A stretch of DNA of 64,000 nucleotides, taken from the NCBI GenBank assembly GCA_963826915.1, contig CAWGYG010000008.1, positions 69,485-133,484 on the forward strand, in the 5' to 3' direction. Origin of the DNA: an uncultured Acidobacteriaceae bacterium (GTDB lineage: Bacteria > Acidobacteriota > Terriglobia > Terriglobales > Acidobacteriaceae). Positions 29,779 through 36,401 of this stretch are shown piece after piece. Under the pieces are notes generated by a model that was not told where the DNA came from, made no database searches, and saw nothing but the letters and a program-made list of their open reading frames with translations. Position 1 is the stretch's first letter. Each line of letters opens with the position of its first letter. A program made the translations under genes and the position numbers.

Positions 29779-31074
29779 TTATGGAATGGCCGCAGAATCT
29801 GCGGAAAGAATGGTTCCTGTGCACTCGCCAAAACCCAATCTCGGCAACCCCGGCTTGCTCGTGTATCCGTGCAATGTAATCTCATCGCCGTCTTCGAGAA
29901 AGGTCCTCGTATCTCCATCCGGTAAGCGGATCGGCTCTCCTCGGTGTTTCATTTCCAGCAAGCAGCCCTCAGATCCCTGCTCCGGCCCGGAAATTGTGCC
30001 AGTGGCAAGCAGATCACCAGGGCGCAGGTTGCAACCGTTGCTGGCGTGATGTGTGAGTAGTTGTGCAATGGACCAATACAAATCGCGCAGGTTGCCGGTT
30101 GATAGCAATAGGGGATGGATGCCTGCTTCGCGCATCTTCTCTGACCGGATGTAAACCTCAAGCGTTAGGTCAAAGCCTTCCTTAATTCCTGCCTTGGGCA
30201 ATAAATACGGCAAGGGTTCCGGATCTCCTTCAGGTCTATTCGTCACGGGAACGCGGTACGGCTCCAACGCCTCAAGCGGAACTACCCAAGGGGAGATTGT
30301 GGTCGCGAAGTTTTTCGCCAGGAACGGCCCGAGCGGCTGGTACTCCCAAGACTGGATATCGCGCGCCGACCAGTCGTTCACGAGGCAGAGACCGAAGATG
30401 TGCTGCTCTGCTTCAGAAATTGGAATGCGTTCGCCGAGATGATTGCCCGCACCTACAAAAATGCCGACCTCTAATTCATAGTCGAGAGAACGTGATGGCC
30501 CATACTCTGGTTCGGCCGCTGAAGTCTTGGTTTGTCCGGACGGCCTTCGAATATCCTGACCGCTCGCGACGATTGAGGAAGCTCGGCCATGGTATCCAAT
30601 CGGTACATATTTGTAGTTCGGCAACAAGGGATTGTCGGGGCGAAAAAGCTTGCCCACCCGCGTAGCGTGATGGATCGATGCATAGAAGTCGGTATAGTCG
30701 CCGATCCGCGCCGGAAGCTGCATCACTGCCTCGTGCATAGGAACCAGCAGAGCCTGGACACGAGATCGCGTGTGCTCATCCGCAGTATCTGCGCCGAGAA
30801 GCGATGTAACTTGGAGCCGCAGAGCCGACCACGCGCGTGGGCCGAGCGACATTAGAAGATTGAGCGATTCAACCTTACAGGATTCCGCAATCTCATCCGA
30901 GAGGCCTGCGAAGAGTCCCTGATCAGTACAAGCGCACAGGTCGAGAATCTGGTCGCCGATCGCGATCCCGATTCGAGTTTGCTCATGATGGCGAAACACG
31001 CCGTAGGGCAGATTCTGTAATGGAAAGTCCGTTTCGGGATCATTTGCCGAAGTAACCCAACTTGTCAGAGCCAT
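29779..31074 (-). CDS. fahA: Fumarylacetoacetase
   Basis: FPLQNLPYGVF, long FAH N- and C-terminal domains, and GDLLATGTISG. Confidence 0.9.
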   Translation of the reverse strand: MALTSWVTSANDPETDFPLQNLPYGVFRHHEQTRIGIAIGDQILDLCACTDQGLFAGLSDEIAESCKVESLNLLMSLGPRAWSALRLQVTSLLGADTADEHTRSRVQALLVPMHEAVMQLPARIGDYTDFYASIHHATRVGKLFRPDNPLLPNYKYVPIGYHGRASSIVASGQDIRRPSGQTKTSAAEPEYGPSRSLDYELEVGIFVGAGNHLGERIPISEAEQHIFGLCLVNDWSARDIQSWEYQPLGPFLAKNFATTISPWVVPLEALEPYRVPVTNRPEGDPEPLPYLLPKAGIKEGFDLTLEVYIRSEKMREAGIHPLLLSTGNLRDLYWSIAQLLTHHASNGCNLRPGDLLATGTISGPEQGSEGCLLEMKHRGEPIRLPDGDTRTFLEDGDEITLHGYTSKPGLPRLGFGECTGTILSADSAAIP

Positions 31075-31919
31075 CCCAGAGCCTCCAGATCGTCTATCGG
31101 CTCTTCAAAGGAGCAGCTTCCAAAGCTGATGAAAAACCGCTCCCGAACCAACTCCAAAATTTCTGCACTCAGATCCAGGGTTCTCCAACGAATTGCGCCA
31201 TCATTGAGGCTCCAGGCGCGTGGATCTTCTTCTTCAAGCAGACGTTGCGCATAGGAGGCTTCACCACCAGAATAGACGAGTGCCGAAGCACACGCGAGAT
31301 TCAAGAAGCCGTGCATCTTTCCGGTGGGGCTGTCGGCCTCATAGGTGAGTCGGTGGTGCGAGCGAATGGGGTGATGCAACCCTGCAGTTGCCTTAAATGG
31401 GATGCGCCGAGCGGCAAGGGCCTTCAACATATTAGCAATTCCAAGGGTTGACGGAAGCGCTTCCGGAATCAACCCACCCATTCTGAGCTTCGCACGCGAC
31501 CCTGTATCCGAAATTGCGTCAAGGATCTCCAAGTTGCGTGATTCAATCGGCACTTCGAAGTACATCGTCACGCTTGATGGAGCTTGCTTGCTGACGCGCA
31601 CGATTTCAGAAGGCTGATCACACTTGATCTCGATCATGTCGACTGGCGGTCCTTTGTCAACTTGCCTGGATATCGAGTCCCAATCAAAAGACGAATTTCG
31701 AATTAAGCTGAACCTAAACTCGCCTTTTGAATCGCCAGTCGCCTCGCAAAGGTCAGTCAGTCGATTTGCATCCACAATGAATCGACCCAGTGCCCAACCG
31801 TGTTTGCTGCGCTTGTATCCAAGATAGTTCTGTGCAGCTGTTTGCAGGTTGAGGCTCGCGGGCGGGTACATACCCGCATAGTCGATTAAGCCTCTGAGCA
31901 AGCTGTCGATTGCGCTCAT
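31065..31919 (-). CDS. Conserved-looking hypothetical protein (284 aa) embedded in the homogentisate operon
   Basis: ATGA overlap with the hmgA stop (31916-31919) and a 10-nt overlap with the fahA start. No family motif recognised. Contains KATAGLHHP and MHGFLN. Confidence 0.7.
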
Positions 31920-33235
31920 TTTCTCTTTGTCTTAGGGTTCGACCCGGGCTTGAAGTGCCGCTTCAGACCCTGCCAACATTCAAAGTATTCATGCTGCAAG
32001 ATCCTGGTGTTCATCGCAAACTCGGTGGGACGCACCACCAACTGCGTTTCAAACATGAACGCTAGGGTATTTGCAAGATACTGCGGTTTCAGATCCGCAG
32101 CCGTCGCCCGTTCGAATGTCTCTGCGTCTGGGCCATGGCCAGCCATGCAGTTGTGAAGGCTGGCTCCTCCGGGCACAAATCCTTCGGCTTTTGCATCGTA
32201 TGCACCGAAGACAAGGCCCATAAACTCATTCATCAGGTTGCGATGAAACCAGGGCGGACGGAATGTGTGTTCCGCGACCATCCATCGCGGTGGAAAAATT
32301 GCAAAGTCACAGTTTGCTGTGCCGGGTACAGAAGACGGCGCACTCAACACCGTGTAGATCGAAGGATCCGGATGATCAAAAGAGACAGTGTTGATGCAGT
32401 TGAAGCGCGCCAGATCATATTTATAAGGAGTGTAGTTTCCATGCCATGCCACGACATCGAGTGGCGAGTGGTTGATTGCTGCCGACCAAAGCCTGCCGAG
32501 AAACTTGGCTGTAATATGAAAGTCTCCTCTGCGATCCACATAGGCTGCCACAGGAGCCTTAAAGTCGCGCGGATTGGCCAGCCCGTTGGCACCGATTGGA
32601 CCCAATTCCGGCAGGCGGAATGGAAGTCCATAGTTCTCGCAGATATACCCGCGAGCTTGCTTCTCCACCAGCGCGACGCGGAATTTGACACCGCGTGGAA
32701 TCACACAGATTTCGCCCGGCGCGACCTCCAGAATTCCTAGCTCCGTGTGGAATTCCAATGCTCCCAGTTGCGGAACAATCAGCATCTCCCCATCGGCGCT
32801 GTAGAAGAAGCGGTCTCGCATGGTCGAGTTGGCTGCATACAAGTGAATGGCCACGCCGGTCTGCATCGCCGGATCGCCATTTCCACCGAGCGTAACGATT
32901 CCGTCAACGAAGTCAGTCTTCTCCGTAGGAATCGGCAGCGGATCCCAGCGCAGTTGGTTCGGACTGGTCGGCGTCTCAAGGAACGGTCCGCTGCGAATCA
33001 GCCGTACAGGTATCTCTTCATAGGGGCGATGAGTTACCGAAGGCCGTATGCGATAGGTCCATGTGCGCCGATTGGTGGCCCGCGGCGCTGTAAAGGGCGT
33101 GCCACTGAACTGCTCGGTATACAAACCGAGTGGATGCTTTTGCGGTGCATTCTGTCCCGCAGGCAGTGCTCCTCGAACTGCCTCGGTAGCGAACTCGTTG
33201 CCGAACCCGCTCTGATATCTAATTTCATCGGACAT
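31916..33235 (-). CDS. hmgA: Homogentisate 1,2-dioxygenase
   Basis: [13 protein letters not shown]...QNAPQK.PLGLY.EQ.SGT.FTAPR...FESCL-type C-terminal region; 439 aa. Confidence 0.95.
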
Positions 33236-33247
33236 GAAAGAAACCTC

Positions 33248-34000
33248 TCACAAACAGCCGGCCGTTGTGCGGCGTTCTGCCTCGTGCATTGCGTCATAGA
33301 TCTGGTCGAAATCCTTCACTGCAAACAACAGCTTGTGTAGCTCGTTGACCTTAACCGGCGTTCGCAGCACCTCGTCCAGCGAGAAATCGTGAATCGCGCA
33401 ATGGCCGTCAATGACATTCTTGCATTCGCCATGCGAACTTATCAGCCCACTGCCGTACACCTTGATCTCGTCCTTTTCACGAATCACGCCAAATTCGACC
33501 GTGTACCAGAACAGGCGTCCCAGTTTTTCTAATACTCCGGCATCTTCAATTGAAGCGCAAACCCGCCCGTAGCGCTCCAGAAAGTCCGCGAATACCGCAT
33601 GCGCATGCATCGGCACATGGCCGAAGACATCATGGAAAATGTCCGGTTCAGGCGTGTACTCCAGCGATTCTCTGCTTCGCAGCCACGTCGTCGTTGGAAA
33701 TTGGCGCGCAGCCAGCATCTCAAAAAACGCGGGCGCCGGCAGAAACCCACTTACTGGGGTCGAGTTCCAACCCGTTCTTGGTTCCAGCCGGGCACTGATC
33801 GCTGTGAGCTCGGGCAGACGATCCTTCCTCAGCCCTATAATCTCAAAACCTTCCAGATACTCGTGTGCCGCATGCTTCTCCAATTCGGGAAGCACGCGCC
33901 CAACCAGTTCAGCCCAGATTGCATGATGCTCATCGGTGTAGGCGCGATAGTCCTGTGTAATGACGTAAGGAGCGGCAGCCGACAGTGTTTCGGTTTTCAT
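33248..34000 (-). CDS. phhA: Phenylalanine 4-hydroxylase (pterin-dependent aromatic amino-acid hydroxylase)
   Basis: The EPDIFHDVFGHVPMH iron-binding His pair and FWYTVEFG. Start moved to ATG 34000 (GGAGAG SD). Confidence 0.9.
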   Translation of the reverse strand: MKTETLSAAAPYVITQDYRAYTDEHHAIWAELVGRVLPELEKHAAHEYLEGFEIIGLRKDRLPELTAISARLEPRTGWNSTPVSGFLPAPAFFEMLAARQFPTTTWLRSRESLEYTPEPDIFHDVFGHVPMHAHAVFADFLERYGRVCASIEDAGVLEKLGRLFWYTVEFGVIREKDEIKVYGSGLISSHGECKNVIDGHCAIHDFSLDEVLRTPVKVNELHKLLFAVKDFDQIYDAMHEAERRTTAGCL

Positions 34001-34021
34001 CTCAGCTCTCCACACGTGTGG

Positions 34022-35182
34022 TTAAAGATTGCCTCGTGCCTTCTGTTCGCGTTCAATGGCCTCAAAGAGCGCCTTGAAATTACCCTTCCCAAAGCTGCGG
34101 CTACCCTTCCGCTGGATGATCTCGAAGAACAACGTCGGGCGATCTTCCACGGGACGGGTAAAGATCTGCAGCATGTAGCCTTCGTCGTCGCGATCCACCA
34201 GGATTCCAAGCTCTTCCAACTCATCCACGGGCTCGTCTATCGTCCCGACACGACCCTGCAGCTCCGTGTAGTAGGTATGCGGAACATGCAGAAATTCGAT
34301 CCCCTGGTTGTGGAGTTTCTTGACCGTGTGCAGAATGTCGTCAGTAGCCAGCGCGATGTGCTGCACGCCTGGTCCGGGATAAAAGTCGAGATACTCCTCG
34401 ATCTGCGATTTTTTCTTGCCCTCGGCCGGCTCGTTGATGGGAAATTTCACATATCCATTGCCGTTGGCCATCACCTTGGACATCAGGGCTGAATATTCAG
34501 TCGAAATATCCTTGTCGTCGAAATGCTGATAGAGCGAGAATCCCATCACATTGGCGTAGAACTGGACCCATTCATCCATCTCATGCCAGCCCACATTGCC
34601 CACCATGTGGTCGATGTGCATCAGGCCAACAGGACGAACGACAGGATCGCTCTCGATTGCGCGAAATCCGGGAAGAAACGGCCCGGAGTAGTTCCCACGT
34701 TCCACAAATGTGTGAATCGTATCCCCATACGTCCGAATACTGGACATCAAAACCTGGCCTTGCTCGTCCGCCAAAACGTAAGGCTGGGCTACGCTCACCG
34801 CGCCACGGCTGGTTGTTTCGCTCCAGGCGCGACGAGCATCGTCAACCCACAGCGCAACCACCCGAACGCCATCTCCATGCCGATTCACGTGTTCGGCAAT
34901 CGCATTGCCAGAGCGCAAGGGAGTGGTAAGCACAAAGCGAATCTTTCCCTGCTGGACTACATAGGAAGCGCGATCGCGCTGGCCGGTTTCAGGCCCGGCA
35001 TAGGCCACCAGTGACATTCCGAATGCAGTCCGGTAAAAGTAAGCCGCCTGACGCGCATTGCCGACATAAAACTCAACATGGTCGGTGCCTTTCAGAGGAA
35101 GAAAATCGCTGCCCGTTTCCTGCGGCCCGGCCAGGGCTTGGGACATGAACGGAGTGGTAGCGGAATGCGCGGATGCGCTCAT
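34022..35182 (-). CDS. hppD: 4-hydroxyphenylpyruvate dioxygenase
   Basis: DHVEFYVGNARQAAYFY, the two VOC barrels, GVQHIAL and the C-terminal FFEIIQRKG...FGKGNFKALFEAIEREQ. Start chosen at ATG 35182 behind AGGAGG. Confidence 0.9.
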   Translation of the reverse strand: MSASAHSATTPFMSQALAGPQETGSDFLPLKGTDHVEFYVGNARQAAYFYRTAFGMSLVAYAGPETGQRDRASYVVQQGKIRFVLTTPLRSGNAIAEHVNRHGDGVRVVALWVDDARRAWSETTSRGAVSVAQPYVLADEQGQVLMSSIRTYGDTIHTFVERGNYSGPFLPGFRAIESDPVVRPVGLMHIDHMVGNVGWHEMDEWVQFYANVMGFSLYQHFDDKDISTEYSALMSKVMANGNGYVKFPINEPAEGKKKSQIEEYLDFYPGPGVQHIALATDDILHTVKKLHNQGIEFLHVPHTYYTELQGRVGTIDEPVDELEELGILVDRDDEGYMLQIFTRPVEDRPTLFFEIIQRKGSRSFGKGNFKALFEAIEREQKARGNL

Positions 35183-35354
35183 TGAGGGTACCTCCTGTGC
35201 CGGAAACGACGAAGTGCAATGGGGATATATTCCCGGCTGTCGCATAAGATAGGCCTCGCGTCACATCGCTGAAAATGGGCATTTACCGAAAAATGGCTAC
35301 CAGGACCTAACAAGATTAAGCATAATATTGATGTACCTTAAGGATGACTGGCCT

Positions 35355-35855
35355 ATGACCCATAAGACCATTCCCAACGTCGTCGAGCTCGATGCGATCG
35401 GCTGGAAGATCCTTGAGGGCTTGCAACAGAACGCCCGCCAGTCCTTTGCGGAACTCGGCCGGAAGATTGGCCTTTCTACACCCGCCGTTGCTGAGCGTGT
35501 CCACCGCCTCGAGGAAGCCGGCGTAATCACCGGGTATCATGCCCATCTGGATTCGGCAAAGCTCGGCGTGCCCGTTCGCGTACTGGTGCGCTTGACGATC
35601 CCCGGCGGCGAGATGCAGATTAGCCGAACCGTCACCGCGCTCAAAGACTTGCCTGAGATCAGCCGCTGCCATCGGATCACTGGCGCCGAATCTTTCGTGA
35701 TCGAAGCGGATGTTGTCTCCATCCGCCATCTTGAGGCCCTGATCGACAGGTTGTCCGCTCTGGGAGCGACGTCCACTTCGACCGTCCTGTCCTCGCCGGT
35801 TGAGCGCCGGGATTATCAATCCAAACAGATCGAGGCCTTCGCCAAGTTCCTCTGA
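35355..35855 (+). CDS. Lrp/AsnC-family transcriptional regulator, divergent from the Phe/Tyr catabolic operon
   Basis: LDAIGWKILEGLQQNARQSFAELGRKIGLSTPAVAERVHRLEEAGVITGY (HTH) followed by a RAM/AsnC-type ligand domain. Confidence 0.9.
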   Translation: MTHKTIPNVVELDAIGWKILEGLQQNARQSFAELGRKIGLSTPAVAERVHRLEEAGVITGYHAHLDSAKLGVPVRVLVRLTIPGGEMQISRTVTALKDLPEISRCHRITGAESFVIEADVVSIRHLEALIDRLSALGATSTSTVLSSPVERRDYQSKQIEAFAKFL

Positions 35856-35858
35856 CGT

Positions 35859-36401
35859 ATGCGTCTGTTCATTGCAGTTCCGTTGCCGCTCGCTCTGATC
35901 CATCAGCTCGAGAAGACCACCAAAGCCCTGCGATCCCCCTCCGACGGCCTGCGCTGGTCGTCGCCTGAATCCTGGCACATCACCTTGCAGTTCCTCGGCA
36001 ACACAACCCAGGGCCGATTCGCCTGCCTCGTCGCAAAACTACGCGCGCTTGAATTCTCGCGTGCGCCCATCCGACTTCAGGCTCTCGGCTTCTTCGATCG
36101 CGCTGGAGTCTTCTTTGCCGGCGTCAGCGTCACACCCGAACTGCTCCTCCTGCAGCAACATGTCACTGCAGCAACGGCACACTGCGGCTTCGTTGCTGAA
36201 ACTCGTCCCTTCCACCCGCACATCACCTTGGCACGCGCAAAGGGTGAAACCCGCGGCTCGGCCCTGCGCGCGTTGAAAGCCAAAGTTCACTTTCAACCGG
36301 AATTCTCCAACTTCGTCGCCACAGAGTTCCTGCTCTACGAAGCCTTTCTTGGCTCTGCTGGTTCCCGCTACGAGGTCCGCGAGCGCTTTCCACTCCGTTG
36401 A
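35859..36401 (+). CDS. thpR: RNA 2',3'-cyclic phosphodiesterase (2H phosphoesterase, LigT/ThpR)
   Basis: MRLFIAVPLP plus two HxT motifs (WHITLQFLG and HPHITLAR). Confidence 0.85.
   Translation: MRLFIAVPLPLALIHQLEKTTKALRSPSDGLRWSSPESWHITLQFLGNTTQGRFACLVAKLRALEFSRAPIRLQALGFFDRAGVFFAGVSVTPELLLLQQHVTAATAHCGFVAETRPFHPHITLARAKGETRGSALRALKAKVHFQPEFSNFVATEFLLYEAFLGSAGSRYEVRERFPLR

Follow-up and report, generated by a model that had tools for sequence, protein, structure and literature searches.

The stretch analyzed here, a window of 64,000 nucleotides (nt) from an uncultured Acidobacteriaceae bacterium (contig CAWGYG010000008.1), carries the operon hppD-phhA-hmgA-X-fahA, in which X is an open reading frame (ORF) of 284 amino acids (aa) from an unnamed protein family. 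The original prediction, made from the letters of the window, proposed X as a maleylacetoacetate isomerase of a kind other than the glutathione S-transferase (GST) known for this step. Our computational tests support this as a candidate assignment, and we find it moderately likely that X is a non-GST maleylacetoacetate cis-trans isomerase, i.e., a non-homologous replacement of MaiA/HmgC (EC 5.2.1.2). X is strongly conserved, forms an enzyme-like barrel, is coupled between hmgA and fahA, and is co-inherited and co-located with fahA. Additionally, the isomerase is the sole step of the homogentisate pathway that has no gene in X-bearing operons. The candidate enzyme would serve bacteria without a zeta-class GST, often without glutathione. 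The reaction is already known, while the protein family, the fold and the probable mechanism would be new for maleylacetoacetate isomerisation.

The operon and the missing isomerase

The whole operon spans positions 29779-35245 of the window, with all genes on the minus strand. Its genes and overlaps are the following:

34022..35245, minus strand: hppD, 4-hydroxyphenylpyruvate dioxygenase, first gene of the operon (TIGR01263 451.7 bits, cut-off 277; Glyoxalase-type Pfam domains)
33248..34015, minus strand: phhA, phenylalanine 4-monooxygenase (NF008877 301.4 bits, cut-off 247; PF00351)
31916..33235, minus strand: hmgA, homogentisate 1,2-dioxygenase, which forms maleylacetoacetate (TIGR01015 695.3 bits, cut-off 510.75; HgmA_N and HgmA_C)
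31916..31919, minus strand: ATGA common to the stop of hmgA and the start of X, which couples their translation (direct reading of the sequence)
31065..31919, minus strand: ORF X, 284 aa, ATG start, TIM-barrel protein of an unnamed family (ORF list; AlphaFold2 model; more than 7000 homologues)
31065..31074, minus strand: overlap of 10 nt between the X 3' end and the fahA start (direct reading; the TIGR01266 alignment begins at residue 5 of the fahA ORF)
29779..31074, minus strand: fahA, fumarylacetoacetase, last gene of the operon (TIGR01266 543.8 bits, cut-off 375.3; FAA_hydrolase_N and FAA_hydrolase)

The names first given to hppD, phhA, hmgA and fahA were correct, as the curated models match far above their cut-offs. 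The coupling of X to both neighbours, also part of the original prediction, can be read in the strand sequence: the ATG start of X (31919-31917) overlaps the TGA stop of hmgA (31918-31916), and the ATG start of fahA (31074-31072) precedes the stop codon of X (31067-31065). The resulting gaps are 6 nt for hppD-phhA, 12 nt for phhA-hmgA, -4 nt for hmgA-X and -10 nt for X-fahA.

ORF X is a genuine gene rather than a frame open by chance, because it has more than 7000 homologues and a confident predicted fold, with a predicted local distance difference test (pLDDT) score of 91.6. A word-indexed search found more than 7000 homologue clusters at 90 % identity, all unnamed or labelled 'hypothetical', and an exhaustive search gave 4692 family representatives at 50 % identity, 1171 of them with E below 1e-30. 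Family members are proteins of about 280-330 aa with the patterns KATAGLHH[PA] and FGSCSFxEP, and X of the window carries both. By motif-pattern search, the family is present in at least 593 species-level genomes from six or more phyla, including Acidobacteriota, Gemmatimonadota, Cyanobacteriota, Bacteroidota, Planctomycetota and Latescibacteria. Culturable bacteria with X include Acidicapsa dinghuensis, Chlorogloeopsis fritschii PCC 6912 and strains of Chitinophagales or Flavobacteriia. The three strings singled out from the first reading of the sequence are present in X: KATAGLHHP (residues 176-184), MHGFLN (202-207) and CSFEEP (269-274). No other motifs are as well conserved in the family.

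The description of X as a protein without GST-like sequence or recognised motif also stands. X has no match in Pfam or NCBIfam at E <= 0.01, and 28 diverse relatives searched against Pfam at E <= 5 hit no family, only scattered single chance matches. Searches of PDB sequences, both by phmmer and with the family profile, gave chance matches only (E > 0.3), and the named ESM Atlas clusters gave no usable match. In the literature we found no paper on the X family or on any non-GST maleylacetoacetate isomerase. HmgX of Aspergillus (PMC3203155) is a different protein, from a fungal cluster.

There is no GST-like gene in the window, as first noted, nor in the source genome, which is 99.86 % complete and in which we found no maiA, no GST N-domain (GST_N_3), no GshB (GSH-S_ATP) and no GshA (Glu_cys_ligase). 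The possibility of a maiA elsewhere in this genome, raised together with the original prediction as a reason to reject it, was therefore not borne out. The genome does encode BshC (G000 C3:188110-189183) and a YfiT-type bacillithiol transferase (240 bits; L034:1405-1938), so the low-molecular-weight thiol of the source organism, as judged from these genes, is probably bacillithiol. Three proteins other than X give DinB-type or mycothiol-dependent maleylpyruvate isomerase (MDMPI)-type matches in the same genome. One of the MDMPI family, a protein of 281 aa on contig C3 (L033:1138-1983), reaches 58.1 bits against TIGR03083 (cut-off 50), matches PF11716 and adjoins a TetR regulator.

A maiA above the family cut-off is absent from every one of the 96 X-bearing genomes tested. 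The single true maiA in our Acidobacteriota sample is in genome G078, where it lies inside an hmgA cluster and X is absent. The family is found both with and without BshC: X is present in BshC-positive genomes (the source genome and Gemmatimonadales) and in BshC-negative ones (three cyanobacteria with ordinary GSTs and one planctomycete). X is therefore not tied to one low-molecular-weight thiol.

Association of X with fahA

X tracks fahA across phyla. The Acidobacteriota sample comprises 151 genomes, each at least 90 % complete, with fahA in 23 and X in 21; X is found in 20/23 genomes with fahA vs 1/128 genomes without. An independent sample of 121 Bacteroidota genomes has fahA in 44 and X in 21, and here X is present in 21/44 genomes with fahA vs 0/77 without. 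The Fisher p-values of about 9e-21 (Acidobacteriota) and about 1e-11 (Bacteroidota) are overstated by shared ancestry. Cyanobacteriota were dropped as a test of complementarity since fahA is too rare there (1/121 genomes); the one genome concerned, Chlorogloeopsis, has X immediately upstream of fahA.

The position of X is as constant as its co-occurrence. In 19 of the 20 other X-bearing Acidobacteriota genomes, fahA follows X at no more than 3 kb and in the same orientation, and 16 of them have a gap below 400 bp. Among 80 named X loci from several phyla, the corresponding numbers are 76 (same strand, within 6 kb) and 71 (gap below 400 bp). Of these 100 loci taken together, 95 have X and fahA on one strand, with X upstream and no more than 6 kb away, and in 87 the distance is below 400 bp. 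This adjacency holds even when hmgA is on another contig, and hmgA is often not nearby in the 80 named loci. Exceptions from Phycisphaerales still have a long FAH-type gene, located elsewhere on the chromosome. Homologues lying mostly outside hmg contexts had been named beforehand as evidence that would speak against an isomerase; what we found is that they occur overwhelmingly in homogentisate or fahA contexts.

True hmgA is present in 14 of the 151 Acidobacteriota genomes, and 11 of these 14 carry X. Most other X-bearing genomes of the phylum have a divergent hmgA-like gene, which is directly upstream of X in G058 and G139. This gene is shorter, has about 25-27 % identity to HmgA of the window and falls below the TIGR01015 cut-off. 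It precedes X directly at L022:7120-7902 and L029:8145-8954, and also at L084, L091, L101 and L107. Judged by sequence, this suggests that a second type of homogentisate dioxygenase feeds the same X-fahA pair.

A search of longer proteins showed that X is also fused to enzymes of the pathway. In the X-FahA fusions, which were found in six protein clusters, X is the N-terminal part, just as its gene precedes fahA; an HmgA-X fusion was found in one cluster. Five further clusters hold fusions in which acetoacetyl-CoA synthetase (AACS) is N-terminal of X, with the gene order hppD / hmgA-like / aminotransferase / [AACS-X] / fahA. In these AACS-X operons all steps from tyrosine to acetoacetyl-CoA are assigned except the isomerase, and X is the sole unassigned domain. 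The AACS-X fusions at L120:6001-9036 (1011 aa) and L121:3419-6571 (1050 aa) join steps before and after FahA in one polypeptide.

X is not restricted to one type of hydrolase. In genome G184, a distant member of the family (94 bits) adjoins a short FAH subtype (FAA_hydro_N_2 and FAA_hydrolase). The sequence of this FAH shares 48 % identity with its short counterpart in G078, which is clustered with hmgA and the true GST-type maiA. One kind of hydrolase thus has MaiA as its partner in G078 and an X-like protein in G184. The genes for metallo-beta-lactamase-fold proteins near the short FAH in both genomes were considered as orthologues and rejected (22 % identity); only FAH supports the case for the same cluster with a different isomerase.

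Three observations concern the operon as a whole. Directly upstream of hppD, at 35316-35978 on the minus strand, lies an ORF of 220 aa with no Pfam or NCBIfam match, which is kept in the same position with 28-49 % identity in many related operons (L036-L039, L042, L043, L053 and L110). This ORF may add a sixth, uncharacterised gene to the operon, e.g., a regulator or a helper in pterin recycling. The same-genus genomes sampled (n=3; 3.4-3.6 Mb vs 5.3 Mb here) lack hmgA, fahA and X; therefore, the operon is accessory in the source genus, which may have acquired or lost it as a single unit. The data sets listed as containing the operon are DNA metagenomes from soil and peat, with no RNA data set among them.

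Predicted fold and possible mechanism

An AlphaFold2 model of X was built from a 24-sequence alignment and has a pLDDT of 91.6 and a predicted template modelling (pTM) score of 0.91. Its alternating strands and helices form a triosephosphate isomerase (TIM) barrel with two extra beta-hairpin inserts (residues 187-202 and 236-251). The fold check suggested with the original prediction thus yields a TIM barrel that looks like an enzyme and shows neither GST nor DinB features. Structural neighbours found by Foldseek and VIA-align are generic TIM barrels only. The best of them is deoxyribose-phosphate aldolase (DERA), with Z 14.8, a root mean square deviation of 3.6 A over 209 residues, about 10 % identity and a Foldseek E of 1.5e-4. 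DERA chains score Z 13-14.8 and other TIM families Z 11-13, among them PdxJ (Z 12.9), homocitrate synthase (Z 12.6) and also isopropylmalate synthases. A profile-profile comparison (hhalign) of X with the DeoC of the source genome gave a probability of 0.35 %, with only the beta-1 motif aligned. The modelled fold is clear, but no superfamily assignment is justified, as other TIM families score nearly as well as DERA.

Conservation was counted in a 44-member alignment that includes fusion domains, divergent Bacteroidota forms and the G184 protein. The main motifs in the window are the following:

31857..31883, minus strand: beta-1 motif D13-Y14-A-G-x-x-P19-P20-A (Y14, P19 and P20 invariant; D13 in 43/44; strand 12-14 in the model)
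31473..31490, minus strand: strand motif K144-L-R146-M-G-G (K144 invariant; R146 in 42/44)
31368..31394, minus strand: motif K176-A-T-A-G-L-H182-H183-P (K176 invariant; both His in 42/44)
31098..31121, minus strand: last-strand motif G-S-C269-S270-F-E-E-P (Cys in 42/44)

Y14, E97, E122, K144 and K176 are invariant in all 44 sequences, and D13, R146, H182, H183, N207, R259, C269 and S270 are conserved in 42-43 of them. In the model, these residues map on, or just after, the predicted barrel strands, with K144 and K176 on consecutive late strands. C269, H182 and R146 are missing in only two members, both from Bacteroidota (G347 and G375) and both on a different contig from fahA. The distant FAH-adjacent copy in G184 retains all three. 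Since the only copies that have lost these residues do not adjoin fahA and the G184 copy keeps them, Cys269, His182 and Arg146 may serve the FahA-linked function of X specifically. The two diverged paralogues (L151:283-1263 in G375 and L152:292-1266 in G347), located away from fahA, probably form a subfamily with a different function.

These residues would allow a mechanism in which X converts maleylacetoacetate (the cis product of HmgA) to fumarylacetoacetate (the trans substrate of FahA). Arg146, Arg186 and Arg259 may hold both carboxylates of the substrate, while the cluster of Lys144, Lys176, Glu97, Glu122, His182 and His183 at the barrel mouth may polarise the 4,6-dioxo group through a Schiff base, enolate stabilisation or a bound metal. 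The thiolate of Cys269 would then add to C2, the C2-C3 bond would rotate and the thiol would be eliminated, so that Cys269 would be the counterpart of the glutathione thiolate in MaiA. X probably does not depend on a specific low-molecular-weight thiol, as it is found in organisms of the bacillithiol type, of the glutathione type and of other types. We propose tentatively, and with clearly less confidence than the isomerase assignment itself, that X represents a new family of cofactor-independent TIM-barrel isomerases in which the near-invariant Cys269, helped by the Lys/Glu/His cluster that grips the diketo acid, replaces glutathione.

Comparison with known enzymes shows which parts of this proposal have parallels. 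MaiA/HmgC/GSTZ1, the zeta-class GST (EC 5.2.1.2, TIGR01262), fills the same slot between HmgA and FahA as X, and MaiA of G078 lies in the hmgA-FAH cluster where other genomes carry X or an X-like gene. As proposed, the two would share both the reaction and its logic of thiolate addition, rotation and elimination. However, MaiA has a thioredoxin-like and helical GST fold and is related to the TIM barrel of X neither in sequence nor in fold. X fails TIGR01262 (171-bit cut-off), with no match at E <= 0.01, nor did the 28 relatives match in Pfam at E <= 5. Furthermore, MaiA uses glutathione, whereas X is found in genomes without glutathione synthesis, where the thiol would be its own Cys269. The cofactor-independent maleate cis-trans isomerase of the Asp/Glu racemase superfamily uses an enzyme Cys as nucleophile, and this chemistry is the mechanistic model proposed here for Cys269. 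Its fold and sequence are unrelated to X and its substrate is free maleate; X and its 28 relatives match no Asp/Glu racemase-type Pfam model. DERA, a class I aldolase (PF01791), shares the TIM-barrel fold with X, but X has no PF01791 match and differs by its beta-hairpin inserts. The pair K144/K176 together with the Asp of beta-1 may resemble the arrangement of the catalytic lysines of DERA (the Schiff-base lysine and a second lysine). The precedent that the original prediction invoked for a glutathione-independent replacement is documented: MDMPI, of the DinB/YfiT type (PF11716/TIGR03083), is a non-GST maleyl cis-trans isomerase in bacteria without glutathione (PMC5790435). That enzyme is a DinB helical bundle which acts on maleylpyruvate and needs a low-molecular-weight thiol, while X has no match to MDMPI_N or DinB models and occurs irrespective of the thiol type.

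Alternative explanations and implications

Several observations weigh against X as the isomerase. We know of no TIM-barrel cis-trans isomerase of this type, we found no biochemical or genetic characterisation of X in the literature, and the mechanism is one that we infer. The mutual exclusivity of X and maiA is weak evidence, as canonical maiA is rare in both phyla anyway (1/151 Acidobacteriota and 0/121 Bacteroidota). Neither X nor maiA is found in 3/23 fahA-bearing Acidobacteriota and in 23/44 fahA-bearing Bacteroidota. A case from the family of the source genome is G083, in which the operon hppD-phhA-hmgA-fahA (L116:7985-12527) has an empty X slot, with an 87-bp gap between hmgA and fahA. 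This operon has an AraC-type regulator upstream, and there is no X or maiA anywhere in the G083 genome. Because many genomes with fahA have neither gene, X is not the sole way of handling the isomerase step, and the argument from the pathway hole is weakened. The genomes that lack both must rely on a different isomerase, on a non-enzymatic route or on direct hydrolysis, and the same could hold here. X is also linked more tightly to fahA than to hmgA, which would fit a role after FahA, and the source genome has, in its 281-aa MDMPI-family (DinB-type) protein together with bacillithiol, a known kind of thiol-dependent maleyl isomerase.

A shared third analogue near fahA was not seen in 20 X-less Bacteroidota loci, which have no common neighbour and no gene matching the X profile. 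The recurrent neighbours in these loci are the housekeeping genes for SHMT, MiaE and agmatine deiminase, and in three loci a Flavin_Reduct-domain protein. The latter (about 300 aa) follows fahA on the same strand at L130:4120-5019, L131:6351-7274 and L138:3619-4440, and in 2/3 of these loci it is part of an hmgA/hppD cluster. It could be another pathway-linked gene.

If X acts after FahA, then FahA would hydrolyse the cis compound to maleate and acetoacetate, and X would turn maleate into fumarate, or hydrate it, with a Cys as nucleophile. Direct hydrolysis of a cis compound is carried out by maleylpyruvate hydrolases in some gentisate pathways. Such a role would fit the tighter link of X to fahA than to hmgA, the fusions of X to FahA and to acetoacetyl-CoA synthetase (the consumer of the other FahA product), the near-invariant Cys and the many genomes that have fahA and no isomerase gene. 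However, FahA of the window is a full-score fumarylacetoacetase equivalog (543.8 bits vs 375), in a family shared with X-less systems and with eukaryotic ones that use the trans substrate. The place of X in the window and its relatives is between hmgA and fahA, X is fused to HmgA as well, and X-less genomes would still need an enzyme that handles maleate, so the hole stays. We regard this explanation as very improbable. A somewhat better case, though still an unlikely one, can be made for X as a FahA-associated protein with other chemistry on beta-diketo acids and no cis-trans isomerisation, such as a keto-enol tautomerase, a scavenger that removes reactive by-products like succinylacetoacetate, or an obligate partner or channel of FahA. 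The fold neighbours of X are aldolase-type and DRE-TIM-type barrels that handle keto-acid enolates, Lys and Glu residues of X are invariant, and X is dispensable in many fahA genomes and kept beside two different FAH subtypes. Nevertheless, the fold similarity is generic (about 10 % identity, and the very low hhalign probability given above), and no such extra step of the homogentisate pathway is known, while isomerisation is a known step that has no assigned gene in any of these operons.

Isomerisation might also be done elsewhere, either by the 281-aa MDMPI/DinB protein with bacillithiol or by uncatalysed thiol addition, with X unrelated to the step and hitch-hiking with fahA. The scores of this protein (58.1 bits for TIGR03083 and a PF11716 match), the presence of BshC and YfiT in the genome, and the documented DinB-type maleylpyruvate isomerase that depends on mycothiol (PMC5790435) agree with this explanation. 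On the other hand, TIGR03083 is a broad domain-level model, and the MDMPI-like gene adjoins a TetR regulator and has no aromatic-catabolic neighbours. Hitch-hiking, moreover, cannot explain why six or more phyla keep the X-fahA pair, why X accompanies two FAH subtypes or why it is fused to pathway enzymes in three ways; we give this explanation very little probability. Isomerisation of maleylacetoacetate by X is the reading that we prefer.

The homogentisate pathway is the universal aerobic route of tyrosine and phenylalanine breakdown. To our knowledge, its isomerase is known only as a glutathione-dependent GST, and the step is therefore without an assigned gene in many soil and aquatic phyla that lack glutathione or zeta-class GSTs. 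If X is the isomerase, a family with 4692 clusters at 50 % identity, present in 593 or more species-level genomes and labelled 'hypothetical protein' everywhere, would gain a function. The gap would be closed in metabolic reconstructions of Acidobacteriota, Gemmatimonadota and Bacteroidota, and a gap in tyrosine catabolism would also be filled in Planctomycetota, some Cyanobacteriota and others. At least one more solution must exist, since X and MaiA are both missing from half of the Bacteroidota with fahA. The assignment would also mean a new, TIM-barrel catalysis of cis-trans isomerisation and, if the enzyme is cofactor-independent and works through Cys269, a third type of maleyl cis-trans isomerase, with no structural relation to the GST and DinB types.

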